Notes under the pieces: generated by a model
What the model was told of the DNA's origin: nothing
Seen by the model: the letters and a program-made list of their open reading frames with translations, nothing else
Databases searched by the model: none
Origin: Fibrobacterota bacterium
Lineage (GTDB): Bacteria; Fibrobacterota; Fibrobacteria; UBA11236; JADFYW01
Direction: 5' to 3'
NCBI GenBank assembly: GCA_042567505.1
Contig: JBHPJW010000005.1
Span: 9,964-73,963, forward strand
Length of the DNA stretch: 64,000 bases
Part shown: positions 19,513 through 43,014 of the stretch, piece by piece
Numbering within the stretch: position 1 is the stretch's first letter
How the letters are laid out: every line of letters starts with the position of its first letter
Made by a program: the position numbers and the translations under genes

Positions 19513-19578
19513 ATAGTTTCAAACTATTACTTCCATTGAAACAAACGATTGGAGAATCTTCGCGGCAGAAAGTATTCT
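19513..19578 (+). promoter_or_regulatory. OxyR box plus sigma-70 promoter of ahpC
   Basis: ATAG-N7-CTAT-N7-ATTG-N7-CGAT (19513-19549), then TTGGAG-N18-TATTCT. Confidence 0.85.
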
Positions 19579-19621
19579 ATGGTAGGAAAGGACTGGAAAA
19601 CATTAACGACGGAGGTTTGTC

Positions 19622-20215
19622 ATGGGAGTTCTCGTGGGAAAAGAAGCGCCTGATTTTTCTGCCACGGCGGTAGAGGCGGGACAGATAAAAGAAGGGTTTA
19701 CCCTGTCGCAGTTCAAGGGAGATAAGTATGTGGTACTTTTTTTCTACCCATTGGATTTTACTTTTGTGTGTCCAACGGAGCTTCACGCTTTTCAGGCTAA
19801 ATCAGGAGAGTTTGCCAAGAGGAATACTCAGGTTATAGGGGTGTCGACTGATTCTCATCATTCGCATTACGCCTGGCTGCAGACTCCCAAGAGCAAGGGC
19901 GGGATTGAAGGAGTGGTTTATCCGTTAGTGGCGGATTTCACTAAAACCATATCCCGTGACTATGATGTTTTACTTGAGGAATCGGGAAAGGCGCAGCGGG
20001 GTCTGTTTTTAATTGATAAAGAAGGGATTGTTCAGCATCAGGTGGTGAATAATCTGGATTTGGGCAGAAATGTCGATGAGGTTATCCGCATGGTGGACGC
20101 CCTGCAATTCACCGAGGAACATGGGGAGGTATGTCCCGCCAACTGGAACAAAGGTGACAGATCCATGAGGGCCAGCAGGGAAGGAGTGGAGGAATTCTTT
20201 GGGCAGGAGCAGTGA
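19622..20215 (+). CDS. ahpC: 2-Cys peroxiredoxin
   Basis: FYPLDFTFVCPTE and GEVCPANW. Confidence 0.96.
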   Translation: MGVLVGKEAPDFSATAVEAGQIKEGFTLSQFKGDKYVVLFFYPLDFTFVCPTELHAFQAKSGEFAKRNTQVIGVSTDSHHSHYAWLQTPKSKGGIEGVVYPLVADFTKTISRDYDVLLEESGKAQRGLFLIDKEGIVQHQVVNNLDLGRNVDEVIRMVDALQFTEEHGEVCPANWNKGDRSMRASREGVEEFFGQEQ

Positions 20216-20328
20216 GGCGTGCGTAATTATGGATTATGAATTCTGGATTTTTAATTATGTAAAAATCCTTAAGGAGACAGAATATATGCCATAATAATCT
20301 TTTTTGTTGTCATCGTCGAAATGGGGTC

Positions 20329-20874
20329 ATGAATTACTTGGATAAGGAATACAATAAAATGAACATTTACGATTTTGCCATGAAAATGGAAAAAGACGGG
20401 GAAGAGTACCTGCGTCGAGCGGCGGAGAGAGCCCCAACCATGGAGTTGAAGCTCATCCTGGGCATGCTCGCCGAAGAGGAAGTGCGGCATTATGAGACCA
20501 TTAAGGCCATGAAACAAAAAGAAAAAGATCCCGGCGGGGCGGAAGATTCGGGCCTCATCGGAGTGAAAAATATTTTTCAGCAAATGATGGAGAAGGAAAG
20601 ACCGCAGCCGGGGCCGAAAATATATGAAAATATGTTCATGGATGACGGTGATCTGAATATGTACAGGGAACTGGTTAACATGGAAAGCTACAGTTTCGCC
20701 TTTTACAGGACGAAAGCCAGGGAGGAGGAGCGGGAAGAAATCAGGAAATTATTTTTCAGCCTCGCAGAGGAAGAGAAAGAACATGAAAAAATAATGAACA
20801 ATTTAGTTACCTTTATACTAGAATCCCGGAACAGGCCGGTCCCGGCGCTTGGTGTAGAGGAATTGGAGGGTTGA
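20329..20874 (+). CDS. Rubrerythrin-like ferritin-family protein
   Basis: A.KME..G..Y, EEEVRH and EEEKEH di-iron motifs. Confidence 0.85.
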   Translation: MNYLDKEYNKMNIYDFAMKMEKDGEEYLRRAAERAPTMELKLILGMLAEEEVRHYETIKAMKQKEKDPGGAEDSGLIGVKNIFQQMMEKERPQPGPKIYENMFMDDGDLNMYRELVNMESYSFAFYRTKAREEEREEIRKLFFSLAEEEKEHEKIMNNLVTFILESRNRPVPALGVEELEG

Positions 20875-20981
20875 GACAGGAATAGAAGGGCATGGGACGA
20901 GTGGAATGAATGCAATGATAAAGCCTTTCATAACTTCTCGGGAAAGGTCTTTTTAAAACAGGCAAAAAGAGGAAAAATTTT

Positions 20982-22496
20982 ATGACGCAGGAACACAATT
21001 TTGTCATTTTCGGCGCCTCAGGAGACCTGACCGCCCGTAAGCTTATGCCGGCGCTTTACTCACTTTATAAGCGCAAGCAGCTTCCTGAACGCTTTGGGGT
21101 CCTGGGCGTAAGCCGCACCAAATGGGACGACGTTACGTTCAGAGAACAGATGGAAAAGGCCATAAAGAGTTTTTCCAGCGATGATCCTGACGTAAAACCA
21201 ATACAAAGCTTTATCAAACACTTGTATTATCAATCCATAAATACACTGGCAGGGGAGGAGTATTCTCAGGTAAAGACAAAACTGGAGCAGGTCGACCAAG
21301 AAGTGAAGACCGGGCCAAACAGTATATTTTATCTCTCGACACCCCCCAGCTTGTACGGGGTGATTCCCGAATACCTGGCGCAGCAGGGTTTGAACAATGC
21401 AGATGGCGGCTGGAAACGGCTGATAATTGAAAAACCCTTTGGCTATAACCTGGAAACTGCCAGAGAATTGAACCGGCAGGTTCTGGAACACTTTAAGGAA
21501 GACCAGGTGTACCGCATCGATCATTATCTGGGCAAGGAAACCGTGCAGAACATTCTAGTGTTCAGGTTTGCAAATGAGATTATGGACACGATCTGGGATT
21601 ATCAGCATATTGACTTTGTGGAAATAACCTCATCCGAGCACATAGGGGTGGGGAGCCGGGGGGGCTATTACGACCAATCCGGAGCGACACGGGACATGGT
21701 GCAGAATCACCTGTTGCAGGTGCTTGCCATGATAACTCTGGAACCTCCGGTGACATTTGACGCGGACAGCGTGCGCTATGAGACGCTCAAGGTATTTAAG
21801 AGCCTCCGGCGCTTGAAGAAATCCAACATCCCCAACCATGCTGTGTTTGGACAGTACACGGCCTCAACCATAAGGGGAGAAAAAGTTAATGGATACAGGC
21901 AGGAGCCCGGTGTGCCTAAGAAATCCAAGACAGACACCTATGCGGCCTTCAAGATGTTCATCGATAATTCCCGCTGGTTCAAGGTTCCGTTTTACCTGAG
22001 AGTGGGGAAGCGGCTGCCCACCAGGGTTACAGAAGTGGTAATTCACTTCAAGAAAACTCCTCATCCCGCTTTCGGTGTCCGGACTGGTATCCATGGTGAA
22101 CAAAACCTGCTGGTTATGCGCATTCAGCCGGATGAGGGTATCCAGCTTAAATTCGGCATGAAGTCCCCCGGGGCGGGTTTTAAGGTCAAATCTCAGGACT
22201 TGAATTTTCATTATTCCCAGGACTCGGATCTGGCGATTCCCGAATCATATGAAAGGCTTTTGCTGGACTGCATGCTGGGTGATGCCACCTTGTACATCAG
22301 GGGGGACGCGGTGGAACAGTGCTGGGAATTTATCGATCCCTATTTGGAATACAAGGAAAGCCAAGCGAAAATATACGGCTATCCGGCCGGGACTTGGGGC
22401 CCGAAGGAGGCGGATGCCTTGATTAACCGGGACCGCCGAGAGTGGAGATATCCCTGCAAGAACCTGGCTAATGACGGGGAGTACTGCGAGCTTTAA
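20982..22496 (+). CDS. zwf: Glucose-6-phosphate 1-dehydrogenase
   Basis: GASGDL, EKPFG and RIDHYLGKE. Confidence 0.97.
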   Translation: MTQEHNFVIFGASGDLTARKLMPALYSLYKRKQLPERFGVLGVSRTKWDDVTFREQMEKAIKSFSSDDPDVKPIQSFIKHLYYQSINTLAGEEYSQVKTKLEQVDQEVKTGPNSIFYLSTPPSLYGVIPEYLAQQGLNNADGGWKRLIIEKPFGYNLETARELNRQVLEHFKEDQVYRIDHYLGKETVQNILVFRFANEIMDTIWDYQHIDFVEITSSEHIGVGSRGGYYDQSGATRDMVQNHLLQVLAMITLEPPVTFDADSVRYETLKVFKSLRRLKKSNIPNHAVFGQYTASTIRGEKVNGYRQEPGVPKKSKTDTYAAFKMFIDNSRWFKVPFYLRVGKRLPTRVTEVVIHFKKTPHPAFGVRTGIHGEQNLLVMRIQPDEGIQLKFGMKSPGAGFKVKSQDLNFHYSQDSDLAIPESYERLLLDCMLGDATLYIRGDAVEQCWEFIDPYLEYKESQAKIYGYPAGTWGPKEADALINRDRREWRYPCKNLANDGEYCEL

Positions 22497-22513
22497 AACA
22501 TATTTTAAATAAT

Positions 22514-23242
22514 ATGCCTAACTCATTGATATTCAACAACATAGAAGACCTGTCTAAACGTTTGTCGGAGGATCTGCTGAGCTCTGTCGCAAGCAAAGCG
22601 CAGCAAGGCGGGGCCTTTCATATGGCTTTGTCAGGGGGAAATACTCCCAGGAAACTCTTCAAAATGCTTGCTGATGATTACAATAAAAGAATCAATTGGG
22701 GTGCGGTGCAATTCTGGTGGGGTGATGAACGATGCGTGCCTGCTGACGACCCGGAGAGCAACTTTGGATCAGCAAGGGAGACTTTACTTTCCTGGATTGA
22801 TATGCCGGAGGTTAATATCCATCCCATGCTTGGAGAGACAGACCCGGAAGTTGAAGCGGTGCGCTATGCAAAAGAGCTGAAATCCATGCTACCGTTAAAT
22901 CAGGAAGGAGTACCTGTTTTCGACTGGATATTGCTGGGTATTGGAAGTGACGGGCATACTGCCTCCCTGTTTCCCTCCGATCTACCCCTGGACTATAAAG
23001 CAGTTACATTGGCGTCCAGGAATCCCCGGACAGGGCAAAGGAGGATATCATTGGGAGCGACGGTCATATGTTCCGCCCTAAAAGTTAGCATTATGGCCAG
23101 CGGCAGTTCCAAGGCAGGTGTGGTTGAGAGGGTTTTTAAGAAAAGCGCTGAAGCGGAGTCTTATCCCATATTCCAGATTACCAGGGAGTGTGAGCATGCG
23201 GAATGGCTGCTTGACAGGGAAGCGGCTTCCGGTTTGGTGTAA
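22514..23242 (+). CDS. pgl: 6-phosphogluconolactonase
   Basis: LSGGNTP, GDERCVP and DGHTASLFP. Confidence 0.95.
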   Translation: MPNSLIFNNIEDLSKRLSEDLLSSVASKAQQGGAFHMALSGGNTPRKLFKMLADDYNKRINWGAVQFWWGDERCVPADDPESNFGSARETLLSWIDMPEVNIHPMLGETDPEVEAVRYAKELKSMLPLNQEGVPVFDWILLGIGSDGHTASLFPSDLPLDYKAVTLASRNPRTGQRRISLGATVICSALKVSIMASGSSKAGVVERVFKKSAEAESYPIFQITRECEHAEWLLDREAASGLV

Positions 23243-23276
23243 GATTTTTTATCAGGAGAATTAAGGGTAAGGTTTG

Positions 23277-23486
23277 GAGTAGGGAGAAAGGAGTAAGGAG
23301 TGGTAAGAGATACGTCATTGCGGGCACGAACTCTGTAAAACGGACTCTGCGAAGCAATCTCTCTATGGAACAATGTTCTTCAGGGAGATTGCCTCACTCA
23401 GGAATTCATTCTCTGGCAGGTGTTCGCAATGGCGGGACTATTTACTCAATCCGAACAGGCTCATTACTCCATCACTCCAATACTCC
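23277..23486. repeat. Composite repeat: GGAGT-type arrays in inverted orientation enclosing a GTCATTGCG...GCAATGGC palindromic element
   Basis: ggagtagggagaaaggagtaaggagt ... cgtcattgcg..gaagcaatctc..gagattgcctc..cgcaatggcg ... tactccatcactccaatactcc. Confidence 0.65.
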
Positions 23487-23528
23487 AAAAGATGATTATT
23501 TAAGGGCTTTAAAAAAAGGAGGATCAAT

Positions 23529-24044
23529 ATGATAAACAAAAAAGTAGAACAGGCCATAAACAAGCAGATAAACGCGGAGCTGTTCTCCTCCTATCTGTAC
23601 ATTTCCATGGCAGCCTGGTTTGAGGCCAAGAACCTCAAGGGCTTTGCCAATTGGATGCGGGTGCAGGCTCAGGAGGAAATCGTTCATGCCATGAAGTTTT
23701 TTAATTTCGTCATTGACCGGGGAGGTAAGGCAATAATGACCGCTATTGACGCTCCCAAGGTCAATTGGAAAAACTCTATTGAAATATACCACGATGCTTT
23801 AAAGCACGAACAAAAGGTGACTTCACTCATAAACAACCTCCTGACTTTGGCAGAAAAGGAAAATGACCATGCTTCCTCCAGTCTTCTGCAGTGGTTCGTG
23901 GATGAGCAGGTAGAGGAGGAGGCCAGCGCTTCTGACATGCTGGAACAATTGAAACTGGTCAATGGCAGGGGTTCCGGACTTTTTATTCTGGACAGGGAGG
24001 CCAGGCAGAGGGTGTTTACACCGCCGGTTGATACAACTCAATAA
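23529..24044 (+). CDS. ftnA: Non-heme ferritin
   Basis: QINAELFSSYLY, EE..HAMK and WFVDEQVEEE. Confidence 0.93.
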   Translation: MINKKVEQAINKQINAELFSSYLYISMAAWFEAKNLKGFANWMRVQAQEEIVHAMKFFNFVIDRGGKAIMTAIDAPKVNWKNSIEIYHDALKHEQKVTSLINNLLTLAEKENDHASSSLLQWFVDEQVEEEASASDMLEQLKLVNGRGSGLFILDREARQRVFTPPVDTTQ

Positions 24045-24245: not shown

Positions 24246-25145
24246 TCAGGATAAAACTTTGCGAGTTTCCTGGATAATAATATCAGCGATTTTTACCAGG
24301 CAGGATTTCCTGAGGCTGGACTTGCGCCACAGGATGCCGATCTTTCTTCCGGGTACGGGATCAGAGAAGGGAATGTACCGAATTGAATGAGGATCAGAAA
24401 GATCCCTTTTTACGGCCAGGTCAGGTATCAGGGTAATGCCGGTTCCCACGGACACCATCTGCCTGAGGGTCTCCAGGCTGGAAGCGCGGAAACCGAGTTG
24501 TTCCCGGGCGCCTGCGTAAGCACAAACATCCAGAGCGTTGTTTCTTAAACAGTGGCCGTCTTCCAGGAGCAAAAGGGCCTCTCCCTTAAGATCGGTCTGC
24601 ATTATTTTTTTACGCTTGGCGAAAGTGTGCTTTGGGGGGACGGCAAGGCAGAAAGGCTCCTCAAACAGTTCATGCACTTCGAGTTCCTCATGGAGTTCCG
24701 GCAGAGCCAGGATAACAGCGTCCAGTTTGCCATCTTTGACCATTTGCAGGATGCGCCTGGTCTGTTCCTCCACCAGGTACAGGTTCAGTTTGGGGAATTC
24801 CTTCTGGATGGGATGAACAATATAGGGAAGCAGGTAGGGCCCCAGCGTGGGAAAGACGCCTAATTTCATGGGACCGGCAAAAGGATCTTTGCCGGTCTTC
24901 GCCAGGTCCATGATATGCGCGGCTTTCGTAAGGACCCTGTCCGCCTGCCTGGCGATCTCTTCCCCCAGGGGGGTTAAAAAGACCTTGTGTTTGGTGCGCT
25001 CTATCAGTTGCACTCCCAGCTCTTCTTCCAGTTTTTTCAGCTGTCCGCTCAAGGTAGGCTGGCTCACGCAGCAGCGCTCGGCCGCCTTGCGGAAATGCTT
25101 GAGATCGGCTACGGCGACCAGGTATTCCAAGTCACGAATGTTCAT
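24246..25145 (-). CDS. oxyR: Hydrogen peroxide sensor OxyR (LysR family)
   Basis: MNIRDLEYLVA, SQPTLSGQ, EDGHCLR....DVC (both redox cysteines) and SLETLRQMV. Confidence 0.95.
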   Translation of the reverse strand: MNIRDLEYLVAVADLKHFRKAAERCCVSQPTLSGQLKKLEEELGVQLIERTKHKVFLTPLGEEIARQADRVLTKAAHIMDLAKTGKDPFAGPMKLGVFPTLGPYLLPYIVHPIQKEFPKLNLYLVEEQTRRILQMVKDGKLDAVILALPELHEELEVHELFEEPFCLAVPPKHTFAKRKKIMQTDLKGEALLLLEDGHCLRNNALDVCAYAGAREQLGFRASSLETLRQMVSVGTGITLIPDLAVKRDLSDPHSIRYIPFSDPVPGRKIGILWRKSSLRKSCLVKIADIIIQETRKVLS

Positions 25146-25163: not shown

Positions 25164-25229
25164 ATAGAACCTGACTATTAAATCCATTGAATCAAACGAT
25201 TGGATTAATATTCCAGTAAAACATATCAT
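25164..25229 (+). promoter_or_regulatory. OxyR box plus promoter of the sigma-factor gene (overlaps the oxyR upstream region)
   Basis: ATAG-N7-CTAT-N7-ATTG-N7-CGAT (25164-25200), then TTGGAT-N18-TATCAT. Confidence 0.85.
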
Positions 25230-25308: not shown

Positions 25309-26127
25309 ATGGCAGCGGAAAAATCAAGCAAGAGCCTCGGGCTTTATATCAAGGACATCAAGGGGAGCAGTCATTTCAGTTTGAAAGAGGAACAGGAGCT
25401 GTTCGCTCTCTTGCGGAAGGGCAGCCGGACAGCCCGCGACATGCTGTTACGGTCCAATATGCGGTTCGTACTCAAAGTAGCTCTGCAATATCAGAAGAGC
25501 CCGCTTCCCCTATCGGACCTTATAAGCGAGGGCGCCATGGGCCTTATCATGGCGATAGATAATTTTGATCCTTCGCGGGGCATTAAGTTTATCTCCTACG
25601 CAGTATGGTGGATAAAAGCCTATATCACCAGGTCCATAAATGAGCACAGCTCACTTATAAGAATTCCCTCCAACCAGGCCTTAAAAATGCGAAAAGCATT
25701 GAGATCCGGTCTTCCCAAGGATCAGCTGGACGATGATATAAAAGAATTAATCCGGTTGTGCGAGAGAGGACTTTCACTTGACGCTCCGGTCAACGGTGAG
25801 GCCGGCAATCTGTTATATGAAACCATAGTTGACGATAATTTCGAGTCGCCGGACAACCTGGCCCAGAGTAATTCCGTGAAGAAATACGCAAGGTCCCTGC
25901 TGGCCAGGCTTCCCGAACGGGAAGCCGAAGTGCTGAAGGCGTGTTACGGCCTGGACAACGGGGTACCCGGAAGTCTGAGGGAAGTAGGAGACAGGCTGGA
26001 TCTTTCCAATGAGCGGGTAAGGCAACTGCGCAATAAGGCCATCCAGCGTTTACAGCAGGATTCGGAAATAGTAAATTGGGCCTTTAACGTTTACCGGATG
26101 AACGGGCCGGAAGACAAGAGAGATTAA
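25309..26127 (+). CDS. Alternative sigma-70 factor, RpoD/RpoS family, lacking region 1.1
   Basis: SNMRFVLKVA, DLISEG, KFISYAVWWI and ERVRQL. Confidence 0.92.
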   Translation: MAAEKSSKSLGLYIKDIKGSSHFSLKEEQELFALLRKGSRTARDMLLRSNMRFVLKVALQYQKSPLPLSDLISEGAMGLIMAIDNFDPSRGIKFISYAVWWIKAYITRSINEHSSLIRIPSNQALKMRKALRSGLPKDQLDDDIKELIRLCERGLSLDAPVNGEAGNLLYETIVDDNFESPDNLAQSNSVKKYARSLLARLPEREAEVLKACYGLDNGVPGSLREVGDRLDLSNERVRQLRNKAIQRLQQDSEIVNWAFNVYRMNGPEDKRD

Positions 26128-26139: not shown

Positions 26140-26592
26140 ATGAGCAGTACTGATTTTGGGGAAATCATCGACTTTGCCATTGAGGAAGAGGTGAAAGCTT
26201 ATACCCTGTATGAAGAAACCGCCGGCAAGACTGATGATAATAGCCTTAAGTCATTATTGACTGACATGGCAGACATGGAACGGGGCCATGAGGCCAGATT
26301 AAAGGCCTTTAAGAAGGGCAAGATTGAAAGTATCGGTTCGGTCCAGGTAGAAGATCTCAAAATAGGCGACTACCTGGTGGATGTTGAAATCAACGAAAAC
26401 AGCAGCGTTCAGGACATTCTCCTCTTTGCTATCAAGGCCGAGATGAAAGCGCATGAGCTGTACACCCAGTTGGAACGGCTGTACGCGGAGCCGGAGGAAC
26501 GAGCCCTTTTTCAGAAACTGGCAAACGAGGAACTGCAGCATAAGAATGACCTGGAAAAGGTTTATGATGATTATGTGTATAAAGAGAATTAG
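26140..26592 (+). CDS. Rubrerythrin-like ferritin-family protein
   Basis: FAIEEE..AY.LY, ME.GH, AIKAE and EE..HK. Confidence 0.88.
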   Translation: MSSTDFGEIIDFAIEEEVKAYTLYEETAGKTDDNSLKSLLTDMADMERGHEARLKAFKKGKIESIGSVQVEDLKIGDYLVDVEINENSSVQDILLFAIKAEMKAHELYTQLERLYAEPEERALFQKLANEELQHKNDLEKVYDDYVYKEN

Positions 26593-26640
26593 GTGAATTG
26601 TAGCGGCGTGCCGCCTGCACGCCGTTACAAATTCCTTTCT

Positions 26641-27750: not shown

Positions 27751-28563
27751 TTATACAAACAACAGCAAACTCACCGCCATCACCATCATTCCAGACACCA
27801 ATCCGTAAACGGCCAAATGAGCCTCGCCATATTCTATGGCGGTGGGCAGCAGTTCGTCAAGGGAGACAAACACCATAATACCCGCCACTGCGGCAAACAG
27901 GATGCCGAACATGATGTCGTTGAAAAAGGAAAACAGGATGGCATATCCCAGGGCCGCTCCTATTGGTTCGGACAGTCCCGAGGCAAAAGAATACAGGAAA
28001 GCCTTTTTTCGGCTGCCGGTAGCATAATAAATCGGCACCGAGACAGCGATTCCTTCGGGGATGTTGTGTATGGCGATGGCGACGGCAATGGCAATGCCGA
28101 TGGAAGGATCCTTGAGAGCGGCTGTGAAAGTGGCGAGACCTTCAGGGAAATTATGTATGGCAATGGCCAGGGCGGTAAACATGCCCATCTTATACAGATT
28201 GTTGTACCTGGCGGCCTGTTCGGCGTTGTCCATAGCCTCAACCTTCTGTACAGCGTGGGGGTTTTCAAAAGAAGGGACGAATTTATCTATGAGGGCAATG
28301 AAGATAATGCCTCCAAAGAAAGAAAGGACCGTCGCCCAGTATCCTTTTACGTCTCCCAGTTCCCCGGTCAGGGTATCTTTTGCCTTGAAAAAAATCTCAA
28401 TAAAGGAGACATAAATCATAACGCCGGCGGAAAAGCCCAGGGCCAGGGAAAGGAATCTGGTATTGGTACGCCGCGCAAAGAAAGCCAGGGCGCTGCCGAT
28501 ACCGGTGGATAATCCGGCAAACAGGGTCAGTCCGAAAGCGAAGAGAACAGTGTTAATATCCAT
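27751..28563 (-). CDS. zupT: ZIP-family divalent metal transporter
   Basis: HNFPEG and HNIPEG motifs, SAGVMIYVSF. Confidence 0.93.
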   Translation of the reverse strand: MDINTVLFAFGLTLFAGLSTGIGSALAFFARRTNTRFLSLALGFSAGVMIYVSFIEIFFKAKDTLTGELGDVKGYWATVLSFFGGIIFIALIDKFVPSFENPHAVQKVEAMDNAEQAARYNNLYKMGMFTALAIAIHNFPEGLATFTAALKDPSIGIAIAVAIAIHNIPEGIAVSVPIYYATGSRKKAFLYSFASGLSEPIGAALGYAILFSFFNDIMFGILFAAVAGIMVFVSLDELLPTAIEYGEAHLAVYGLVSGMMVMAVSLLLFV

Positions 28564-28609
28564 AACGGGCTTTTTCCTGAAAAAATAATAAATCAATTAA
28601 ATACTAATC

Positions 28610-28675
28610 ATAGATATTTCCTATCACTTTCATAAAATCAAACGATTGGATAAATCCCCGTTATAAACCTATACT
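28610..28675 (+). promoter_or_regulatory. OxyR box plus promoter of the DHODH-like/nifU pair
   Basis: ATAG-N7-CTAT-N7-ATAA-N7-CGAT (28610-28646), then TTGGAT-N18-TATACT. Confidence 0.8.
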
Positions 28676-28708: not shown

Positions 28709-29701
28709 ATGGCGGATTTATCAACAGAGTACATGGGATTGAAACTTGCACATCCCATTGTTCCGGGAGCATCTCCCCTGACAAAAACCATTGATGGCAT
28801 TAAGGAGCTTGAGGACGCCGGAGCGCCGGCGATGGTATTGTATTCCATCTTCGAGGAACAGCTGCGGGCCGAATCAAGCCGGCTTGATCATTTCCTCAAC
28901 TACGGATCAGAGACCTTTGCCGAGGCGGTGAATTATTTCCCAAACCTTGACCTGTATAATCTTGGCCCTGAGGAGTATCTCGAGCACATTCGCCGGGCCA
29001 AGGAAGCCGTTGCCATACCTGTGATTGCCAGTCTGAATGGCGTTTCACTTGAGGGATGGACCGACTATGCTAAAAGTATGCAGCAGGCCGGGGCGGACGG
29101 CCTGGAGTTGAACATGTATTACCTGGCGGCACATCAGGATATAGACGGATATACCGTTGAGGAACGTTACCTGAAGGTAATCAAGGCCGTGAAGGGAAGC
29201 GTTACCATCCCCGTGGCCATGAAGCTCAGTCCTTTCTTCAGCTCCGTCTCCCACATGTCTAACCAGTTAAGCAGGGCCGGAGCAGACGCTCTGGTGTTAT
29301 TTAACCGGTTTTACCAACCGGAAATCAATATCAATGAATTATCCGTAGAACCGCATCTGGTCCTGAGTAATTCGAATGAAAAAAACCTTCCCCTGCGGTG
29401 GATCGCGATTTTACACGGCAGGATATTCGCAGATATTGCCGCCAGCACCGGGATCCACTCCGTCGATGACGTGATAGCGATGGTGATGGCAGGGGCGAAC
29501 ATCACTCAGGTGACATCAGTCCTTCTGGACAAAAACCTCAACTGGATTTCAAGTTCTATACGGGAATTGGGGAACTGGCTGGAAAAACGGGGATATAATT
29601 CCCTGGAAGAGATTACAGGATTATTGAGTCAGCAGAAATGCGCTGAGCCGGCGGCTTATGAGCGGGCTAATTACGTAAAAACACTCATGAGTTTCAGTTA
29701 G
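28709..29701 (+). CDS. Dihydroorotate dehydrogenase-like FMN protein
   Basis: LST.YMGL.L..P, SIFEEQ, KLSPFFS, LFNRFYQP and YERANY. Confidence 0.88.
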   Translation: MADLSTEYMGLKLAHPIVPGASPLTKTIDGIKELEDAGAPAMVLYSIFEEQLRAESSRLDHFLNYGSETFAEAVNYFPNLDLYNLGPEEYLEHIRRAKEAVAIPVIASLNGVSLEGWTDYAKSMQQAGADGLELNMYYLAAHQDIDGYTVEERYLKVIKAVKGSVTIPVAMKLSPFFSSVSHMSNQLSRAGADALVLFNRFYQPEININELSVEPHLVLSNSNEKNLPLRWIAILHGRIFADIAASTGIHSVDDVIAMVMAGANITQVTSVLLDKNLNWISSSIRELGNWLEKRGYNSLEEITGLLSQQKCAEPAAYERANYVKTLMSFS

Positions 29702-29785
29702 GATGGCACGGGCAGGCTCCGGGACTGAAAAATATGAGTGTTTTTATTATTATGGATTAAGCAAACAAGATTGAGGAGGCACACC

Positions 29786-30013
29786 ATGGATAAGCAACAA
29801 GTACAGGAAGCATTAAATGAGATCAGGCCCATGCTGCAGGCCGATGGTGGTGATGTTTCCCTGGTGGATGTAACAGAAGATGGAATTGTGAAGGTTCAGC
29901 TCACCGGCGCATGCGGAGGCTGTCCCATGTCCCAGATGACCCTGAGCCGGGGAATAGAAACCAGATTAAAGGCCAAGATCCCGGAAGTGAAACAGGTAGT
30001 CTCGGCAAATTGA
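29786..30013 (+). CDS. NifU/Nfu-type Fe-S carrier
   Basis: IRPMLQADGGDV and GACGGCPMS; RBS GAGGAGG. Confidence 0.93.
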   Translation: MDKQQVQEALNEIRPMLQADGGDVSLVDVTEDGIVKVQLTGACGGCPMSQMTLSRGIETRLKAKIPEVKQVVSAN

Positions 30014-33842: not shown

Positions 33843-34120
33843 GCTTTTTTGTCCTCTTTCTTCTTGAACATGCTGAGCATACGATTGGTCACCAGGTATC
33901 CACCCACCACGTTTGTGGTGGCAAACGCCACTGCCAGGGCTCCCAGGATGGAGGACAGCAGGGAATTGCCCGCCCCGGCCGCCACGATTGCGCCCAGCAC
34001 GGTGATGCCCGAAATGGCGTTGGAGCCGGACATCAGGGGGGTGTGCAGGGTGGACGGGACCTTTGAGATCAGCTCAAATCCCAGGAAAATGGCCAGCATG
34101 AGAATAAAGAGAAGTTCCAT
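33839..34120 (-). CDS. pntA: NAD(P) transhydrogenase alpha subunit, membrane part (alpha-2)
   Basis: VPSTLHTPLMSGSNAISGI and RMLSMF. Confidence 0.95.
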   Translation of the reverse strand: MELLFILMLAIFLGFELISKVPSTLHTPLMSGSNAISGITVLGAIVAAGAGNSLLSSILGALAVAFATTNVVGGYLVTNRMLSMFKKKEDKKA

Positions 34121-34121
34121 G

Positions 34122-35264: not shown

Positions 35265-35380
35265 AATGTTTTGATATATGGTGGGTAAAGATGAGCCTGT
35301 TTTATCTCTTCGAACATGGTAATAGATAGTATTTTTTTAAAACAATTGTCATACCGCTTATTTAAAACGAAGGAAGATGC

Positions 35381-35815: not shown

Positions 35816-35961
35816 TTTTTTTTCTCCGGTGTTAAAAGGTAAAAATTGGCATGAGATAAAAAAAGTAGGAGAATTCCTCATCGGAAGTCACGGCTTTCGC
35901 CGTGGCGGGTGTTAAAGAGGGCGGAATGGCATGACTTCTCCCGGGCATTTATTCCAGGAGA

Positions 35962-38900
35962 TTACTCTCTAAGCAGGACCTTGATGGTTTTTTTAAATTC
36001 CCGGGCCCGCATGTTGCAGAGGTACAGCTGGGAGCCCAGACCGCTTTCCCGTCTTAAAGGCTGCCGGTAGAATCCGGGCACGGCAGGTTTGTTCCAGAGT
36101 TCGCGTACCATCTTTCCCTTCATGTTGTACAGGTTTATCTTCAGAGGCACCGGTGTCATGCCGTTTAAGGGCGGTACATCGAAATGAAGGTTATCGCCGT
36201 ACACCGACAAGTCAAATCTCGTCGGCAGCAAACCTCTGCTTAAAAGGATGGATACCAGGTTATCAAATTCCGCCGCGATGGTCACAGGCTCGGTTATTAC
36301 GGCCCTGGCCTGTTCATCCATATTGTCCCAGAGGACAGCGCTACCGGAAATAACGTTCCATTCCAGAAGGCCGTAAGTCTCCTCGGGGATGGCAGTAAGT
36401 GTCAGGGTGTCCCCGTGCAGCACAAGGGTGTCGGGGTAGGGGGAGACAGCTCCCCCGGTACCCGCCTGCAGGGTCACGAGATATGACTTCCTCTGGAACA
36501 CTGCCTGTACGGCCGCCTCTCCCGAAGTCAGCGTGACGGTGGTGGTGTCGCTGGCGGAGTCGGCAATGTCAGCGCTGCCGTCGACGACGGCCCACCTGTC
36601 CAGTTCATGTCCATCACCAGGAACAGCGATTACTTGAGTAGCTGCTCCATGGTTGACTGTTTGTATGACGGCAGGCAGGGTTGTGCCGGTCCCTCTGCTG
36701 GATATGGTCAATTGATAGGTCTTTAAGGTGAATTCGGCCCGCACTTCCGCGTTCCCGGAAGAAAGGGTGATGTAAGTGGTGTCGTCGAAGACCTCGGCGA
36801 TATCCGCGCTGCCGTTAACCACGGTCCATCTCCAGAAATTATATCCCGTATTGGGGGCGGCGATTATCCGGTCCGCCACTCCGTGTTCCAGGCTCTGCAC
36901 GCCGGTGGGGATGGTGCTTCCGTTGCCGTCGGTGCTTAAGGTGAGATCATAATTAATGAGTCCGAATTCGGCCGTGACCGTGGCGTCGCCCGAGGTCAGG
37001 GTGACAGTGGTGACGGTGCTGGTGGAATCGGCGATAACGGCACTGCCCGAACTCACGTACCATCGTTCCAGTTCATACAGGGGACTGGGCGTGGCGGTTA
37101 TCTGGGTGGCCACGCCGTGGTCCACGGTCTGGGAGAAGAAGGGATTGACGGTCCCGTTGCCGGCGGAGGTAACGGAAAGCGAATAGGTTTTTATAGCAAA
37201 GTTCGCACGGATAGTGGCATCTCCTGAAGACAGGGTAGCGGTGGTCGTATCGTCTGTCGCCATGGCAATATTTGCATTTCCGGCGGTAGTTTCCCAGTAA
37301 TTAAAATCATATCCCGTGTTGGGGACAGCTATAATCTGCTGGGCCACGCTGTGCTCCACGCTCGCCAGCCCGGCGGGGATGGTGGTCCCGTTGCCGTCGG
37401 CGGTCATGGTAAGGGAGTAACTGGCGAACCTGAACTCGGCCGTGATCGTGGCGCTGCCGGAGGTGAGGGTCACGTTGGTGGTGTTATCGGCAGTGTCGGC
37501 GATGGCGGCGCTGCCGGAGGTGAGGGTCCACCTGGCGAATTCATATCCAAAACCAGGTGTCGCGGTTATCTGCCTGGCCACGCCGTGGTTTACGACCTGC
37601 AGGCCGGAAGGATTAGTGCTTCCGTTGCCGTCATTATTGACGGTCAGCTGATAGGATTTCAGCATGAAATCTGCCCGGACTTCCCCGTCTCCCGAATTAA
37701 GAGTGACAGTAGTAGTATCATTGGAAGGATCAAACACCGATGGAATTCCGGAGACTGTAGTCCAGGTGAAGAAATCATACCCCGGATTTGCCAAAGCGAT
37801 GATGGTGGTCGGATCGCCCTGGCTTGCCTGTTGATCGCCGGCAGGACTGGTAGCTCCATTGCCGTCATTGGATACCGTGAGGGTGTAGGGGGCCAGCACA
37901 AAGTTGGCCCGGACAAAGGCGCTTTCTGTAAACAGGGAAACCGTGGTGGTGTCGTTGAGGGAATCGGCGACAACGGCCGTGCCGGAGGCGACGTCCCAGT
38001 GGCTGAACAGGTATCCGGAGTTTGGTGTGGCTATGACCTGGGTGGGGGCGCCGAAGTTGACGGACTGAGTGCCTGATGGATTTGTGAAACCGTTTATATC
38101 GCCGCTTACAGTCAGTGAGAAAGTTATGGGCCGGAAATAGGCGTGGACCGTGGCGTCGCTGGTTGAGATGGTTATAGTTGTGGTGTCATTATTAGCATCG
38201 TCAATGGTCCCGGCCCCGCTGGAAAGGTTCCACCGGAAAAACTCATTGCCCGTGTCCGGATCGGCGATAAGCTGAACTATGTCGCCATAGTAGACCGTCT
38301 GGGCTCCCGCCGGGGTAGTGGTTCCGTATCCGGTGTCAGATACCGTGAGGGTATAGGGAATCCTGGAAAAGTTGGCCCGGACTTCCGAGTCATACACAGA
38401 AAGGGTGACTTCGGCCGGGTTGGCCGTGGTGTCGTCGAATACCGGGGTTCCATTAACCGTTGACCAGTGGGAAAAGGCGTATCCGCTGTTCGGAAAGGCC
38501 TGAATGGTCTGCCCACCCCCGTTATTTACCGGCATGGTACCGTCCACATTGGTGGTCCCATTGCCGTCGTCGCCCACGGTGAGGTTGAAATACTGGGGCT
38601 TGAAATTCGCTTTAATAGTGGCGGGACCGCTGGAAAGGGTGACATCAGTGAAAGAGGCGGTGGAATCGCCGAAGGCCGCGCCGCCGACGGTAACGGACCA
38701 GTGGGAGAAGATGTAGTTGGCGCCCGGGCTGCAGCTGATGTTTTGCGCCACGTTGTGATATACAGTCTGGGTATCGGCGGGGGTAGTTATCCCGTTTCCG
38801 TCGTTGGTTACGGTGAGAAGATAATCATAGGGTGTGAACACGGCCCGGATGGTTGAACTCGGCCAGGTGGTGGTGAGGGTGGTGGTGTCGTTATTGGCGT

Positions 38901-41016
38901 CGTCGATGGTGACGATGCCGTTTACATTGTCCCAGTAGCTGAAATTATATCCGGTGTCGGGAATGGCTATAATGGTTTCAGCGCTGTCATACCGGGCCCA
39001 CAGGGTGTCAATCGGGATGGTTACCCCCCCGTTTTCCTGCTGCATGACCACGGGATTGGTTATTATCCCGAACTGCGCCAGAACGGTCGCGGGACCATTT
39101 GTCAAAGCGATAGTGGTATTGGGATTGGTTGAATCTGCGACAGAAGCTTCCCCGCTGGTGACCGTCCAGTACAGGAACTCATATCCGGCCTGTGAAACAC
39201 TAGCCCTGATGGGAACGGGAGAGCCGTGATCGACCGTAACTCCCGGAGTGGGGCTGACCCTTCCGCCCTGGGAAGCATTTACGGTTAAGTAATACTGCTT
39301 GATGGAGAAATTGGCCTGCACTGTAGCATCACCCGATGACAAAGTAGCTGTGGTGGAGGAATCATTGGCATTTCCAAACGAGGCAGAACCGGAAGTGACG
39401 GTCCAGTTGTCGAACTGGTAGCCCTCATCCGGGGCGGCCGTGACGCCCACCGGCACTCCATGGCCTGCCCCGGTAGCGCCTGACGGATCAGTAACGCCGT
39501 TGCCGCCGGAAGACACGGTAAGCGTGTAGTCGTTAAGCACGAAATTCGCCTGCACCGCGGCGTCCCCCGAAGCCAGGGCCACGGTAGTGGTATCGTCCAG
39601 GGAATCGGAGATGGCGGCAGTGCCTGATGTTACGGTCCATTTGGAGAAGGAATAGCCGGGATTGGGCGCGGCGCCTATCTGGGTGGCGGCTCCGTAGTCC
39701 ACGGTCTGGCTGCCCGAAGGGTTGGTGGAGCCATTGCCGTCATTTTCAACCGTGAGCGAGTAGGTGATGATGGAAAACATGGCCCGAACCTCCGCGTCAC
39801 CTGTCAGGGTAACGGTAGTGGAGGCGCTGGTGGAATCGGCGATATCCGGACTGCCGGCCCTGGTGGCCCAGTAGGAAAACAGGTACCCGGTGGAAGGCGA
39901 GGCGGAAATCGCATTAGCCACCCCGTGCTTGACGGTCTGCTGGCCGGAGGGGGTGGTGGTGCCGTTGCCGTCGTCGTCGATTTCCAGGGTGTAGGTGCTG
40001 GTGTCGAAATTGGCCTGGATGGCGGCGTCGCCGGCAGTCAATGTTACGGTCGTGGTATCATTGCCCGTGTCATTTATGGAGGCTGTACCGCTGGTGGCGG
40101 CCCAGTGGGAAAAAGTATAACCTGTGCCGGCGGAAGCGATTACCTGATTGGTGTCGTTGTGATAGACGGTCTGGCTGCCGGAGGGATTGGTAGTGCCTCT
40201 TCCGTCGTTATTGACCGTCAGGGTGTAGGGCACTCCCTGGAAATTGGCCTGGGCGGTAACTCTGAGGCTGGATTGCAGGACAATGGAGGTGGATGAGGAT
40301 GATGTGTCCAGGATTACTCCATCTCCGCTGGTTACCATCCATCTGGAAAAAGTATATCCGGGATTTGCCGTGGCTGATATGGCCACGGTGTTGCCCTGTT
40401 CATCGACTGTGTCCGCGGCCGGGGTCACGGTGCCGTTGCCGTCACTGACCACTGAAAGGGTGCAGGCCTGGGTGCCCCAGATTTCTATGTCGTCTATATA
40501 GGCTCCGCCTCGAAGGCTGTAATCATAGATGCTGCAGTAAAACCGGAACCTTATCCGCACCACTTGCCCTATATAGGAATTGAGGTTGATGGTGTTGGAA
40601 TGCCATTGCGCGGCGTTTGGGCCGCCCTCATGGGTGTCATATCCGGTGTGGTACAGTTCCAGCAGCGTCCAGTTATTGCCCTGGTCTGTAGAGATGTAAA
40701 CGCCCAGGCGGTCCCAGGTCTCCACCATGTCGAGCCAGTAATTATACCTGAGCTCCGCTTTAGCCCAGCCGACGAAACTGAAGTCCTTGTAAAGCGAGGA
40801 TGAGAAATAGGCCGTTCTATCGCAGTGCATGGAAGCGTAACCCGAGGTGTAATAAGCTCCGCTGCGTTCCCAGCTGGGCCAGCCGCTGATGCTCCAGCCG
40901 TCAAAGTCGCTGGTAAACTGATAGCTGTATATCTGCCTGATGGCGGCTTGGGTAGGTACGGCCGCCAGGACCACGGCGCAGAGAACTATTATGGCAATAG
41001 AGTAACCCCGATTCAT
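35962..41016 (-). CDS. Large secreted protein: N-terminal jelly-roll-like domain, 18 InlB-B/Flg_new-like repeats, C-terminal sorting-like domain
   Basis: Signal peptide; WHSNTINLNSY.GQ.VRIRFRF..GAYIDDI; 18 x ~78-aa YTLTV..DGNG.T.P...GY.F..W repeats; tail INLYNMKGKMVREL..YLCNM. Confidence 0.88.
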   Translation of the reverse strand: MNRGYSIAIIVLCAVVLAAVPTQAAIRQIYSYQFTSDFDGWSISGWPSWERSGAYYTSGYASMHCDRTAYFSSSLYKDFSFVGWAKAELRYNYWLDMVETWDRLGVYISTDQGNNWTLLELYHTGYDTHEGGPNAAQWHSNTINLNSYIGQVVRIRFRFYCSIYDYSLRGGAYIDDIEIWGTQACTLSVVSDGNGTVTPAADTVDEQGNTVAISATANPGYTFSRWMVTSGDGVILDTSSSSTSIVLQSSLRVTAQANFQGVPYTLTVNNDGRGTTNPSGSQTVYHNDTNQVIASAGTGYTFSHWAATSGTASINDTGNDTTTVTLTAGDAAIQANFDTSTYTLEIDDDGNGTTTPSGQQTVKHGVANAISASPSTGYLFSYWATRAGSPDIADSTSASTTVTLTGDAEVRAMFSIITYSLTVENDGNGSTNPSGSQTVDYGAATQIGAAPNPGYSFSKWTVTSGTAAISDSLDDTTTVALASGDAAVQANFVLNDYTLTVSSGGNGVTDPSGATGAGHGVPVGVTAAPDEGYQFDNWTVTSGSASFGNANDSSTTATLSSGDATVQANFSIKQYYLTVNASQGGRVSPTPGVTVDHGSPVPIRASVSQAGYEFLYWTVTSGEASVADSTNPNTTIALTNGPATVLAQFGIITNPVVMQQENGGVTIPIDTLWARYDSAETIIAIPDTGYNFSYWDNVNGIVTIDDANNDTTTLTTTWPSSTIRAVFTPYDYLLTVTNDGNGITTPADTQTVYHNVAQNISCSPGANYIFSHWSVTVGGAAFGDSTASFTDVTLSSGPATIKANFKPQYFNLTVGDDGNGTTNVDGTMPVNNGGGQTIQAFPNSGYAFSHWSTVNGTPVFDDTTANPAEVTLSVYDSEVRANFSRIPYTLTVSDTGYGTTTPAGAQTVYYGDIVQLIADPDTGNEFFRWNLSSGAGTIDDANNDTTTITISTSDATVHAYFRPITFSLTVSGDINGFTNPSGTQSVNFGAPTQVIATPNSGYLFSHWDVASGTAVVADSLNDTTTVSLFTESAFVRANFVLAPYTLTVSNDGNGATSPAGDQQASQGDPTTIIALANPGYDFFTWTTVSGIPSVFDPSNDTTTVTLNSGDGEVRADFMLKSYQLTVNNDGNGSTNPSGLQVVNHGVARQITATPGFGYEFARWTLTSGSAAIADTADNTTNVTLTSGSATITAEFRFASYSLTMTADGNGTTIPAGLASVEHSVAQQIIAVPNTGYDFNYWETTAGNANIAMATDDTTTATLSSGDATIRANFAIKTYSLSVTSAGNGTVNPFFSQTVDHGVATQITATPSPLYELERWYVSSGSAVIADSTSTVTTVTLTSGDATVTAEFGLINYDLTLSTDGNGSTIPTGVQSLEHGVADRIIAAPNTGYNFWRWTVVNGSADIAEVFDDTTYITLSSGNAEVRAEFTLKTYQLTISSRGTGTTLPAVIQTVNHGAATQVIAVPGDGHELDRWAVVDGSADIADSASDTTTVTLTSGEAAVQAVFQRKSYLVTLQAGTGGAVSPYPDTLVLHGDTLTLTAIPEETYGLLEWNVISGSAVLWDNMDEQARAVITEPVTIAAEFDNLVSILLSRGLLPTRFDLSVYGDNLHFDVPPLNGMTPVPLKINLYNMKGKMVRELWNKPAVPGFYRQPLRRESGLGSQLYLCNMRAREFKKTIKVLLRE

Positions 41017-41338: not shown

Positions 41339-41384
41339 TATTTTGATCTTTAACTAATATCCATCAACCTGGAGAAAGGGAAAA

Positions 41385-42428
41385 ATGAGGTACAAACTAT
41401 TCGGAAAAAGCGGGCTTCGGGTCTCGGAGATTTGCCTGGGCACCATGACCTTCGGATTGGAATGGGGCTGGGGCGCCTCAAAAGCCGAGAGCCGGAAGAT
41501 GTTTGACAGGTTCGCGGACACGGGGGGCAACTTTATTGACACAGCCAATATGTATACAGATGGGACCAGCGAAAAACTGACCGGAGAGTTTATCCGCGCG
41601 GACCGGGAGCATTTTGTGCTGGCCACTAAATACAGTCTCAGCATGAGGAAGGGAGATCCGAATTTTTCAGGAAACCATCGGAAAAACATGGTCCAATCCC
41701 TTGAAGCGTCTTTAAAAAGGCTTAAAACAGAGTACGTGGATATCTATTGGGTGCATGCCTGGGACTTCATGACCCCCATTGAAGAGGTGATGAGGGGTCT
41801 GGACGACCTGGTCCACGCGGGAAAGGTGCATTATATCGGCATATCAGATACTCCAGCCTGGATTGTCGCAAGGGCCAATACCATGGCAGGATTAAAAGAC
41901 TGGACTGCCTTCACAGGCATGCAGATAAAATACAGCCTGGCCGAACGCACGGCCGAACGGGACCTGCTGCCCCTGACCAGGGAGGACGGCATGGCAGTGA
42001 CGGTCTGGGGCGCCCTGGCCTCAGGACTGCTCAGCGGGAAATTCCATAACAGGAAAAAGCGAATGTCTCAGAAAAAAAATACAAGAATAAATCCCGCTAC
42101 TGATTCCAAGTTTTTTACGGAAAAGAACCTGGCCGTCACCGGTAAAATTATGGAAATCGCAGAAGCCATGGACCGGCCTCCGGCTCAGATTGCCCTCAAC
42201 TGGGTACGTCAGCAGCAGGGAACCATTATACCCATTGTGGGAGCCAGGAATGACAAGCAGTTGAAGGAGAACCTTGAATGCCTGGAATTTAACCTGGATA
42301 AGGAACAGTTGTGGGCACTGGATGACGTGTCCCGGATTGAGCTCGGGTTCCCCCATGAGTTCCTGCGAACAGAAACCGTGCTGCAGAAGCTATATGGAGG
42401 AACACTGGACTCAATCGATTTGGAATGA
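41385..42428 (+). CDS. Aldo/keto reductase
   Basis: SGLRVSEICLGTMTFG, GGNFIDTAN.Y and SLKRL.TEYVD. Confidence 0.95.
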   Translation: MRYKLFGKSGLRVSEICLGTMTFGLEWGWGASKAESRKMFDRFADTGGNFIDTANMYTDGTSEKLTGEFIRADREHFVLATKYSLSMRKGDPNFSGNHRKNMVQSLEASLKRLKTEYVDIYWVHAWDFMTPIEEVMRGLDDLVHAGKVHYIGISDTPAWIVARANTMAGLKDWTAFTGMQIKYSLAERTAERDLLPLTREDGMAVTVWGALASGLLSGKFHNRKKRMSQKKNTRINPATDSKFFTEKNLAVTGKIMEIAEAMDRPPAQIALNWVRQQQGTIIPIVGARNDKQLKENLECLEFNLDKEQLWALDDVSRIELGFPHEFLRTETVLQKLYGGTLDSIDLE

Positions 42429-42479
42429 GTTGAAATCAAGCTGTAAAGAACAGAAATTTACATTTGGGAGAACGGTAAA

Positions 42480-42944
42480 ATGATAACAGCGGAAGAACTC
42501 CTTCGGGACAAGGGAAGAGAACTCATTGGTGTTTCCCCGGACGCTTCTATCAGAGATGCGCTGAAAGTAATGGTAGAAAAAAAAATTGGCTCAATTCTCA
42601 TCAAGGAAAACGGGAAAGTGGCCGGTATCTGGACAGAGCGGGACTTCATGCAGAATATCCTGTCGGAGGGATTTGACCTGGACAGATCCCGGGTGGGTGA
42701 TTACATGACCACCAAACTGCAATATGCCCGCATATCGGATCCGTTACATATATTAATGGACAAGTTCCTGGGATTGGGAATCCGCCATTTGCTCATAGAA
42801 AAGAATGGAGAGTGTGTGGGTGTGCTTTCCACCAGGGACGTGGTCAGGTCCAACCTGCATGAAAAATTTCAGGAACTAAAAAAAGAAAATGCTGAGACCA
42901 GCTGGGAATACTATGAAAACTGGAAATGGACACCCGGTAGCTGA
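42480..42944 (+). CDS. CBS-domain protein
   Basis: Two CBS motifs (GIWTERD, IRHL.I). Confidence 0.9.
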   Translation: MITAEELLRDKGRELIGVSPDASIRDALKVMVEKKIGSILIKENGKVAGIWTERDFMQNILSEGFDLDRSRVGDYMTTKLQYARISDPLHILMDKFLGLGIRHLLIEKNGECVGVLSTRDVVRSNLHEKFQELKKENAETSWEYYENWKWTPGS

Positions 42945-42948
42945 ACTG

Positions 42949-43014
42949 ATAGTCCTGTTCTATTAACAAGATTGAAACAAACAATTAGATAATAATATGC
43001 GTTCTATATATTCT
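42949..43014 (+). promoter_or_regulatory. OxyR box plus promoter of transaldolase
   Basis: ATAG-N7-CTAT-N7-ATTG-N7-CAAT (42949-42985), then TTAGAT-N18-TATTCT. Confidence 0.8.

Follow-up and report, generated by a model that had tools for sequence, protein, structure and literature searches.

Near-identical OxyR-type operator–promoter modules gathered in an oxygen-defence island of a Fibrobacterota bacterium

Eleven boxes, their promoters and the genes behind them

The stretch of 64,000 nucleotides (nt) analysed here, referred to below as the window, comes from a Fibrobacterota bacterium (assembly GCA_042567505.1, contig JBHPJW010000005.1, positions 9,964 to 73,963) and carries oxyR, the gene of a LysR-type regulator, together with a set of 37-bp boxes that run into promoters in front of genes for, among others, a peroxiredoxin, an alternative sigma factor and transaldolase. 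An earlier sequence-only reading of this DNA had picked out four such boxes and taken them for a regulon of four promoters under the local OxyR. Searched over the window as an exact pattern (ATAG-N7-CTAT-N7-AT-N9-CNAT, 37 bp), the box gave 4 matches, all on the + strand, at 19513, 25164, 28610 and 42949, against 0 expected from 100 dinucleotide-preserving shuffles of the window, so that the four sites are where that reading had placed them. Their number, however, had been set too low. When a weight matrix built from these four sites was run over the whole assembly (3.23 Mb, 235 contigs, 66.29% complete), it returned exactly 11 matches above threshold: five in the window, one beyond it on the same contig (C181), three on contig C153 and two on contig C172. 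The regulon thus comprises at least 11 candidate promoters, and the fifth box of the window had escaped the four-site pattern because its first element is ATTG instead of ATAG. With the matrix rebuilt from all 11 sites, these score 45.5–58.5 bits, the next-best position of the genome scores 11.3 bits, and the maxima in three shuffled genomes are 18.0, 14.6 and 10.9 bits. All 11 sites fall on 3 of the 235 contigs, a concentration (11 sites on three contigs or fewer) that was reached in 0 of 200,000 random placements. The boxes of the window and their promoters are as follows.

Box 1, 19513..19549, + strand: ATAG-N7-CTAT-N7-ATTG-N7-CGAT, 57.7 bits
Promoter 1, 19549..19578, + strand: -35 TTGGAG (19549-19554), 18-nt spacer, -10 TATTCT (19573-19578)
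Box 2, 25164..25200, + strand: 58.5 bits, 19 nt from the oxyR start codon
Promoter 2, + strand, behind box 2: -35 TTGGAT, -10 TATCAT (25224-25229)
Box 3, 28610..28646, + strand: 53.8 bits
Promoter 3, + strand, behind box 3: -35 TTGGAT, -10 TATACT (28670-28675)
Box 4, 42949..42985, + strand: 50.5 bits
Promoter 4, + strand, behind box 4: -35 TTAGAT, -10 TATTCT (43009-43014)
Box 5, 60277..60313, - strand: first element ATTG, 46.8 bits
Promoter 5, - strand, behind box 5: -35 TTAGAA, -10 TACATT (60248-60253)

The four tetrads of the box (positions 1-4, 12-15, 23-26 and 34-37) are ATAG-type elements that follow each other at intervals of one helical turn, and most tetrad positions carry the full 2.0 bits of information over the 11 sites, with 0.6–1.6 bits at positions 1, 3, 13, 25, 26 and 35. 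In the alignment, positions 23-41 are nearly invariant (AT-t-GAAAcAAACGATTGGA), a conservation that goes well beyond the skeleton of the ATAG/CTAT pattern. In boxes 1-4 the last T is at the same time the first base of the -35 hexamer, and exactly 18 nt separate -35 from -10, which agrees with the geometry that the sequence-only reading had given for its four sites. The same layout recurs in all modules: T-T-x-x-A at positions 37-41 and TAnnnT at positions 61-66 are found in 11/11 sites, and transcription would be expected to start about 7-9 nt past the TAnnnT -10. Sigma-32-type promoters were also considered for these modules and rejected, as a CCCC-type element is found only at box 3, whereas the fixed TAnnnT is common to all 11.

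The genes behind the boxes, with oxyR and a divergent neighbour of box 3, are listed next, first those of the window and then those of the six further sites.

19622..20215, + strand: 2-Cys peroxiredoxin (AhpC/Prx family; ahpC), first gene behind box 1
20329..20874, + strand: ferritin-like/rubrerythrin-like protein of 181 amino acids (aa), second gene behind box 1
20982..22496, + strand: zwf, glucose-6-phosphate dehydrogenase, 1.4 kb downstream of the ahpC promoter
22514..23242, + strand: pgl, 6-phosphogluconolactonase, 17 nt after zwf
23529..24044, + strand: ftn, non-haem ferritin, separated from pgl by a 286-nt spacer that a dispersed repeat fills
24246..25145, - strand: oxyR, LysR-type regulator, its start 19 nt from box 2 and transcribed away from it
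25309..26127, + strand: alternative sigma-70-family factor with regions 2, 3 and 4, behind box 2
26140..26592, + strand: ferritin-like/rubrerythrin-like protein of 150 aa, second gene behind box 2
27751..28596, - strand: ZIP-family metal transporter, divergent from box 3
28709..29701, + strand: dihydroorotate-dehydrogenase-like protein (NF005741, 446.6 bits), behind box 3
29738..30013, + strand: NifU/Nfu-type Fe-S cluster carrier, behind box 3
43015..43206, + strand: long tal leader, strongly structured (z = -5.06)
43207..44169, + strand: tal, transaldolase (TIGR00874, 487.7 bits), directly behind box 4
59777-60046, - strand: 89-aa open reading frame (ORF), first behind box 5, overlapping the gltB start by 4 nt
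55236-59780, - strand: gltB, glutamate synthase (GOGAT) operon behind box 5
53803-55236, - strand: gltD, same operon behind box 5
C181, box beyond the window: 147-aa ORF and desulfoferrodoxin (superoxide reductase)
C172, one box: 61-aa ORF, thioredoxin, 2-hydroxyacid dehydrogenase, DUF2064 protein and an 816-aa flavoprotein disulfide reductase with Fe-S domains
C172, other box: 65-aa ORF upstream of a cation-efflux gene
C153, one box: 63-aa ferredoxin and peroxiredoxin
C153, second box: yceI, ygbA and a PIG-L-type deacetylase
C153, third box: DUF255 thioredoxin-domain protein, with Ni-superoxide dismutase divergent

Among the targets that had been proposed earlier, ahpC with its ferritin-like neighbour, the sigma factor gene, the dihydroorotate-dehydrogenase-like/Nfu pair and tal do stand directly behind boxes; zwf, pgl and ftn are linked to a box by position only. 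The sigma factor behind box 2 resembles RpoS and RpoH yet falls below both cut-offs, and directly after the gene of the 150-aa ferritin-like protein that follows it lies the strongest terminator-like hairpin of the region (26598-26630). The ferritin-like proteins behind boxes 1 and 2, when compared with each other, are not close paralogues (E 0.053). Since Escherichia coli OxyR induces the manganese importer gene mntH, the divergent ZIP gene could be an analogous metal-import target, and it is a possible second target of box 3.

A small detail of the modules on the other contigs concerns short first ORFs. The 61-aa ORF on C172, which is acidic, has a good ribosome-binding site and lies between the box promoter and the thioredoxin gene, is kept in a sister genus (genome G004, described below; 50% over 44 aa, E 1e-8), and it gave no match to any family tested. 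Comparable small first ORFs stand behind two further boxes, namely the 63-aa ferredoxin and the 65-aa ORF.

OxyR and its operators here and in other lineages

The sequence-only reading had presumed a local OxyR, although it had missed that a LysR-type gene starts 19 nt from box 2, and the protein encoded there bears the presumption out. It has the LysR-type domains (PF00126 at residues 3-62, 3e-22; PF03466 at residues 89-283, 1.4e-47), it passes the cut-off of the OxyR equivalog model NF008361, and the next-ranked family, Francisella-type OxyR, stays below its own cut-off of 500 with 240.5 bits. Aligned with E. coli OxyR over 294 residues, the protein shows 49% identity, and in this ungapped alignment it keeps LEDGHCLR with Cys199, Cys208 nine residues on, and an identical recognition helix (SQPTLSGQ); what the two cysteines do is described in the excerpts of PMC3378865 used here. 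Among solved structures the best match is 4x6g_A (OxyR, 5.5e-64), and the top seven PDB matches are all named OxyR or hydrogen peroxide-inducible genes activator. By this evidence the gene at 24246-25145 is a bona fide OxyR orthologue, for which a peroxide-driven disulfide switch is predicted.

The E. coli oxyR-oxyS region offers the closest comparison. The OxyR motif is defined as ATAG-N7-CTAT-N7-ATAG-N7-CTAT (PMC3378865, in excerpt). Across 8.9 kb of the E. coli locus, the best position for the 11-site matrix is the oxyR-oxyS spacer, where positions 1, 12, 23 and 34 are taken by ATAG, CGAT, ATAG and CGAT and positions 61-66 by GATAAT, with the same spacing as here and a similar stretch, AACGATTA. 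Rfam places the 5' end of OxyS at box position 75; the E. coli operator therefore spans -74 to -38, and the modules described here are laid out alike. The likeness extends to the regulator, which shares 49% identity, the cysteines and the recognition helix, to the four tetrads at 1, 12, 23 and 34 with a -10 at 61-66, and to the setting, as the operator starts 22 nt from the oxyR start codon in E. coli (19 nt here) and points away from oxyR in both. The two systems differ in the divergent partner, which is the gene of an alternative sigma factor here and the small RNA (sRNA) OxyS in E. coli, and in that the 11 operators here are far more uniform than E. coli OxyR sites. An Rfam scan of the window gave 0 family matches, so no known OxyS-like sRNA is present in it. 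To our knowledge, tal, zwf-pgl, GOGAT and superoxide reductase are not among the E. coli OxyR targets. On the - strand at 25248-25220 there is a promoter-like site for oxyR itself (TTGTCA-17-TATGTT); box 2, whose placement was tested, is probably both an activator site for the sigma gene and an autoregulatory operator over the oxyR leader and promoter, both functions being predictions.

The matrix, although built from this genome only, also recognises operators in other lineages. A genome-collection search with the OxyR query gave best relatives 46-54% identical and no close synteny. Applied to 680 kb from 80 OxyR loci of other lineages, the matrix gave 41 matches above 10 bits, 35 of them within 80 nt upstream of oxyR and pointing away from it, and in 58 of the 80 loci the spot next to oxyR was the best position of the entire locus. 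Together with the spacing of the elements and the oxyS-like geometry, these matches support the view that the boxes are OxyR-type operators, and the matrix scan that had been proposed as a check thus found 11 sites at home and oxyR-adjacent operators elsewhere. In a metagenome collection the best match to OxyR was 55% identical, and 80 loci from it (1.09 Mb) held 8 matrix matches above 15 bits, at most one per locus, and no second such island.

Within the order, 39 genomes were searched with a generic tetramer pattern and a reversed control; the counts take in one genome (G027) used for presence or absence only, and the relatives are not independent of each other. The pattern gave 16 matches in 8 genomes and the reversed control none, and seven of the eight motif-bearing genomes encode OxyR at 50% identity or more. 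In one genus (G013, G017, G018, G020, G022 and G030), each genome has a single site, on the same contig as OxyR (50-54% identical) and 0.8-2.1 kb away from it, and the gene behind it is a rubrerythrin gene in both genomes annotated. Another genus, with twelve genomes, had neither OxyR nor motif in the search. The richest relative is G004 (same family, other genus, 79% complete), with at least 6 boxes, some of which precede orthologues of genes behind boxes here: the small ORF (50%) with thioredoxin (66%), and the DUF255 thioredoxin-domain protein (58%). Further boxes of G004 stand before a sigma factor gene, whose product is only 30% identical to the sigma protein of the window, genes of a CDGSH and a CIA30-domain protein, and a pntAA-pntAB-pntB operon. 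This distribution suggests that the regulon may have grown from one promoter in a neighbouring family to at least 11 in the lineage of the window.

We suggest, with a probability of about 0.85, that each box is a composite module of OxyR operator and promoter under the local OxyR, with at least 11 promoters in the set. Observed are the sites and their geometry, the OxyR orthologue, the genes behind the boxes, which serve redox defence throughout, and the conservation in one sister genus; binding, activation, transcription starts and operon extents are what we infer, activation as the mode of control from the geometry only. OxyR, a LysR-type tetramer, would be oxidised by peroxide at Cys199 and Cys208, and the oxidised form would occupy four successive major grooves (ATAG, CTAT, ATtG and CGAT, from about -74 to -38), so that its last contact would abut a weak sigma-70-type -35 (TTGGAt) lying 18 nt from the TAnnnT -10. 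A tetramer so placed would bring in RNA polymerase, as happens at oxyS in E. coli, and at box 2 it would also autoregulate oxyR.

Several observations weigh against this. The regulator is only 6 bits over its family cut-off (335.3 bits against 329 for NF008361), a narrow margin, and our matrix gives the E. coli oxyS site only -2.1 bits, even though no other position in that locus scores higher. Three of the 10 order genomes with OxyR at 50% identity or more have no strict motif match, and G004, the sole exception to the co-occurrence, has its at least 6 boxes but no OxyR found at E <= 1e-40, for which the incompleteness of the assembly may be the cause. GOGAT (gltBD), an NADPH-consuming Fe-S enzyme, is an odd member of a peroxide regulon. 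Finally, positions 27-33 inside the second dyad are near-invariant, more than OxyR contacts alone should require, and a second constraint is therefore possible, be it DNA bending, the alpha subunit of the polymerase or another factor. The stretch AAACGATT is also present at oxyR-adjacent sites of Photobacterium and Enterobacterales; it therefore looks like a general property of strong OxyR sites and not a local one.

Pentose phosphate genes and NADPH supply

The sequence-only reading had tied peroxide sensing to the pentose phosphate pathway, and this part of it has to be divided. For tal the link holds: no gene lies between box 4 and tal, the 258-nt distance from box to ATG is lengthened by a dispersed-repeat copy, to which the strong structure of the leader is also due, and the predicted control of tal by OxyR is a direct consequence of the position of box 4. 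No terminator-like site was found from tal to nqrA. For zwf and pgl the link is by operon reasoning, and no box was found at zwf in any of 29 relatives.

How far transcription from promoter 1 extends is the question on which the best-surviving alternative turns. In this alternative OxyR would control ahpC and tal, the transcript from box 1 would end or attenuate after ahpC, and zwf-pgl, with ftn, would be served by promoters of their own, leaving the pentose phosphate link only apparent. It draws on an AU-rich hairpin with a U-run just after ahpC, on a promoter-like site within the end of the ferritin-like gene and before zwf (TGAACA-18-TAGAAT, 20795-20824), and on the relatives: zwf was found in 37 of 41 genomes (our own included; full-length matches 40-46% identical), and 0 of 29 relatives' zwf loci had a box within about 1.5 kb, with a best score of 6.6 bits. 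It also draws on the 286-nt pgl-ftn spacer, which holds a structured dispersed repeat, and on PF00393 (6-phosphogluconate dehydrogenase, gnd), which was not found in the 66%-complete assembly, a result that does not show absence. Our own genome lacks a box upstream of zwf (best score -14.7 bits over 20200-21000) and of ftn (-13.5 bits). On the other side, ahpC, the ferritin-like gene, zwf and pgl lie on one strand with gaps of only 113, 107 and 17 nt, a terminator scan of the + strand from 20215 to 23218 gave no terminator-like site, and the ahpC/ferritin-like and ferritin-like/zwf spacers fold no better than their shuffles (z -0.22 and 0.33). Moreover, tal of the same pathway has its own box, and a box of G004 precedes another source of NADPH, pntAB. 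Separate promoters for zwf-pgl are thus a serious possibility, to which we would give somewhat less than an even chance, and we lean slightly towards co-transcription of zwf-pgl from OxyR promoter 1.

In E. coli, zwf is a target of SoxRS, which supplies NADPH via glucose-6-phosphate dehydrogenase (PMC3378865, introduction). The likeness is that of an oxidative-stress regulator raising NADPH supply through this enzyme; the difference is that the candidate regulator here is the peroxide sensor OxyR and that the link would be by operon fusion behind ahpC. Searches for SoxR (TIGR01950) and for the Fur/PerR family (PF01475) found neither in the 66%-complete assembly, which does not show absence. 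In Pseudomonas aeruginosa, OxyR ChIP-chip (PMC3378865, Table 1) found ahpC, pntAA and a probable ECF sigma gene bound, with an ATAG-type dyad as the motif, as here; an NADPH-supply gene and a sigma gene as targets therefore have precedent. The sites there are degenerate and scattered, whereas those here are near-identical and clustered, and neither zwf nor tal was seen among the bound regions in the excerpts of PMC3378865 used, where zwf is named only as a target of E. coli SoxRS. A link between OxyR and NADPH supply is favoured because the G004 box precedes pntAB and P. aeruginosa OxyR binds pntAA (PMC3378865, Table 1). A limited literature search gave no paper in which OxyR is placed directly at either zwf or tal, and none that deals with the OxyR of Fibrobacter; no OxyR-zwf link was seen in the excerpts used of PMC8859910.

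The obligate anaerobes of the Bacteroides group provide a further parallel. In the parts of PMC5210497 used here, aeration switches their OxyR on, and their defence comprises rubrerythrins, AhpC, iron-storage proteins, cytochrome bd oxidase and rubredoxin:oxygen oxidoreductase, which are the kinds of genes found around the boxes here. That group belongs to a phylum other than Fibrobacterota, and those parts of PMC5210497 gave no operator map and no pentose phosphate or sigma target. It is tempting to speculate, as a tentative proposal somewhat short of an even bet, that in this anaerobic lineage the role played by SoxRS in E. coli has passed to OxyR, namely NADPH supply under peroxide (through zwf-pgl behind ahpC and tal, and through pntAB in the sister genus), that a second-tier sigma factor has come to stand in the OxyS slot, and that the regulon has grown from a single rubrerythrin promoter to an island of at least 11 modules.

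The window has a pntAA-pntAB-pntB operon of its own (32466-35881, - strand), which lies behind the gene of an Rrf2-family regulator; neither the operon nor the Rrf2 gene has an OxyR box in front (best -7.2 bits). Set beside the boxed pnt operon of G004, it may reflect a regulator swap for the same NADPH-supply function.

The spacers 23243-23528 (pgl-ftn), 43015-43206 (tal leader) and 44170-44466 (tal-nqrA) contain copies of one dispersed, strongly structured repeat family, whose ends carry runs of GGAGT-type 7-8-mers and their complements. In blastn each spacer gave 28-39 matches (E < 1e-4, self included) on dozens of contigs, and an 86-aa ORF (44220-44480) inside one of the copies is probably not a gene.

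Mode of control and the surroundings of the boxes

Two other accounts keep OxyR at the boxes and change what it does there. In the first, transcription from OxyR-bound boxes would need the alternative sigma factor of the island, in a feed-forward loop in which this factor reads TTGGAt-18-TAnnnT together with the conserved upstream stretch. In both genera a sigma gene has a box in front of it, conservation of the block GAAAcAAACGATTGGA exceeds what four ATAG-type contacts need, and the 18-nt spacer and non-consensus -35 are invariant across the sites. We nevertheless consider this account improbable. The promoter of the sigma gene has the same module, so another holoenzyme must fire the sigma gene first; E. 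coli oxyS is a sigma-70 promoter and has the same spacing with the similar stretch AACGATTA; the sigma proteins of the two genera are only 30% identical; and sites next to oxyR in Photobacterium and Enterobacterales also contain AAACGATT.

In the second, reduced OxyR would mainly repress at the boxes and oxidation would relieve the repression, which would retain induction by a different mechanism. Corynebacterium OxyR works in this way, as a repressor when reduced that is relieved by oxidation. The excerpts used of PMC3306370 describe it as a negative regulator, in E. coli, oxyR is repressed by its own product whether this is oxidised or reduced (PMC3378865, in excerpt), and box 2 overlaps the oxyR leader. 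However, the box stops at the -35 and leaves the -10 and start site uncovered, it is placed as at the activated oxyS promoter, and a weak -35 with an 18-nt spacer is what one expects of activator-dependent promoters, so that general repression seems unlikely as well. It is very improbable that the boxes are bound by another regulator (e.g. another LysR-type protein) or represent copies of a mobile promoter cassette that share no regulator, despite the boxes of G004 without a detected OxyR and a genome rich in dispersed intergenic repeats, because only the functional positions are conserved and not the N7 spacers of the ATAG-type pattern, the linker or the flanks, the matrix finds oxyR-adjacent operators across phyla, the genome has a single OxyR match at E <= 1e-40, and boxes precede orthologous genes in two genera.

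Activation by OxyR, as set out above, is textbook OxyR action of the kind known from the E. coli oxyR-oxyS region, and it is the gene list that is new. What this locus would add is a new phylum, modules so uniform and so clustered, a sigma gene in the divergent slot, and a membership that takes in tal, GOGAT, superoxide reductase and probably zwf-pgl. None of these points alters the accepted view of how OxyR acts. They provide, however, a testable map of oxygen-survival wiring in an uncultured anaerobe, with one sensor, one operator and at least 11 promoters, and the uniformity of the operator allows related genomes to be scanned with almost no background. Beyond the textbook regulon, NADPH-supply genes stand behind boxes (tal, probably zwf-pgl, and pntAB in the sister genus), a sigma gene lies divergent next to oxyR, and there is an apparent expansion from one promoter to eleven.

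The boxes share their three contigs with many defence genes that have no box. These include the oxygen and peroxide defence genes for a flavodiiron protein, cytochrome bd oxidase, msrAB and three more rubrerythrin-family proteins, the DNA repair genes fpg and an endonuclease-III-like gene, the redox and respiration genes of Na+-NQR and of the pntAB operon behind its Rrf2 regulator, and, among other stress genes, hsp20 and the gene of an HtrA-like protease. With the boxes and many such genes concentrated on C153, C172 and C181, the description of the region as an oxygen-defence island, which the sequence-only reading had put forward, therefore holds.

Two further genes in these surroundings stand apart from oxygen defence. 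In the middle of the island, the window encodes a 1684-aa protein (35962-41016, - strand) with about 17 Flg_new_2 (InlB B-repeat-like) units. On C153, a gene of the 23S rRNA intervening-sequence protein family (PF05635; locus L099:18649-19059) lies beside a Cus-type efflux operon.

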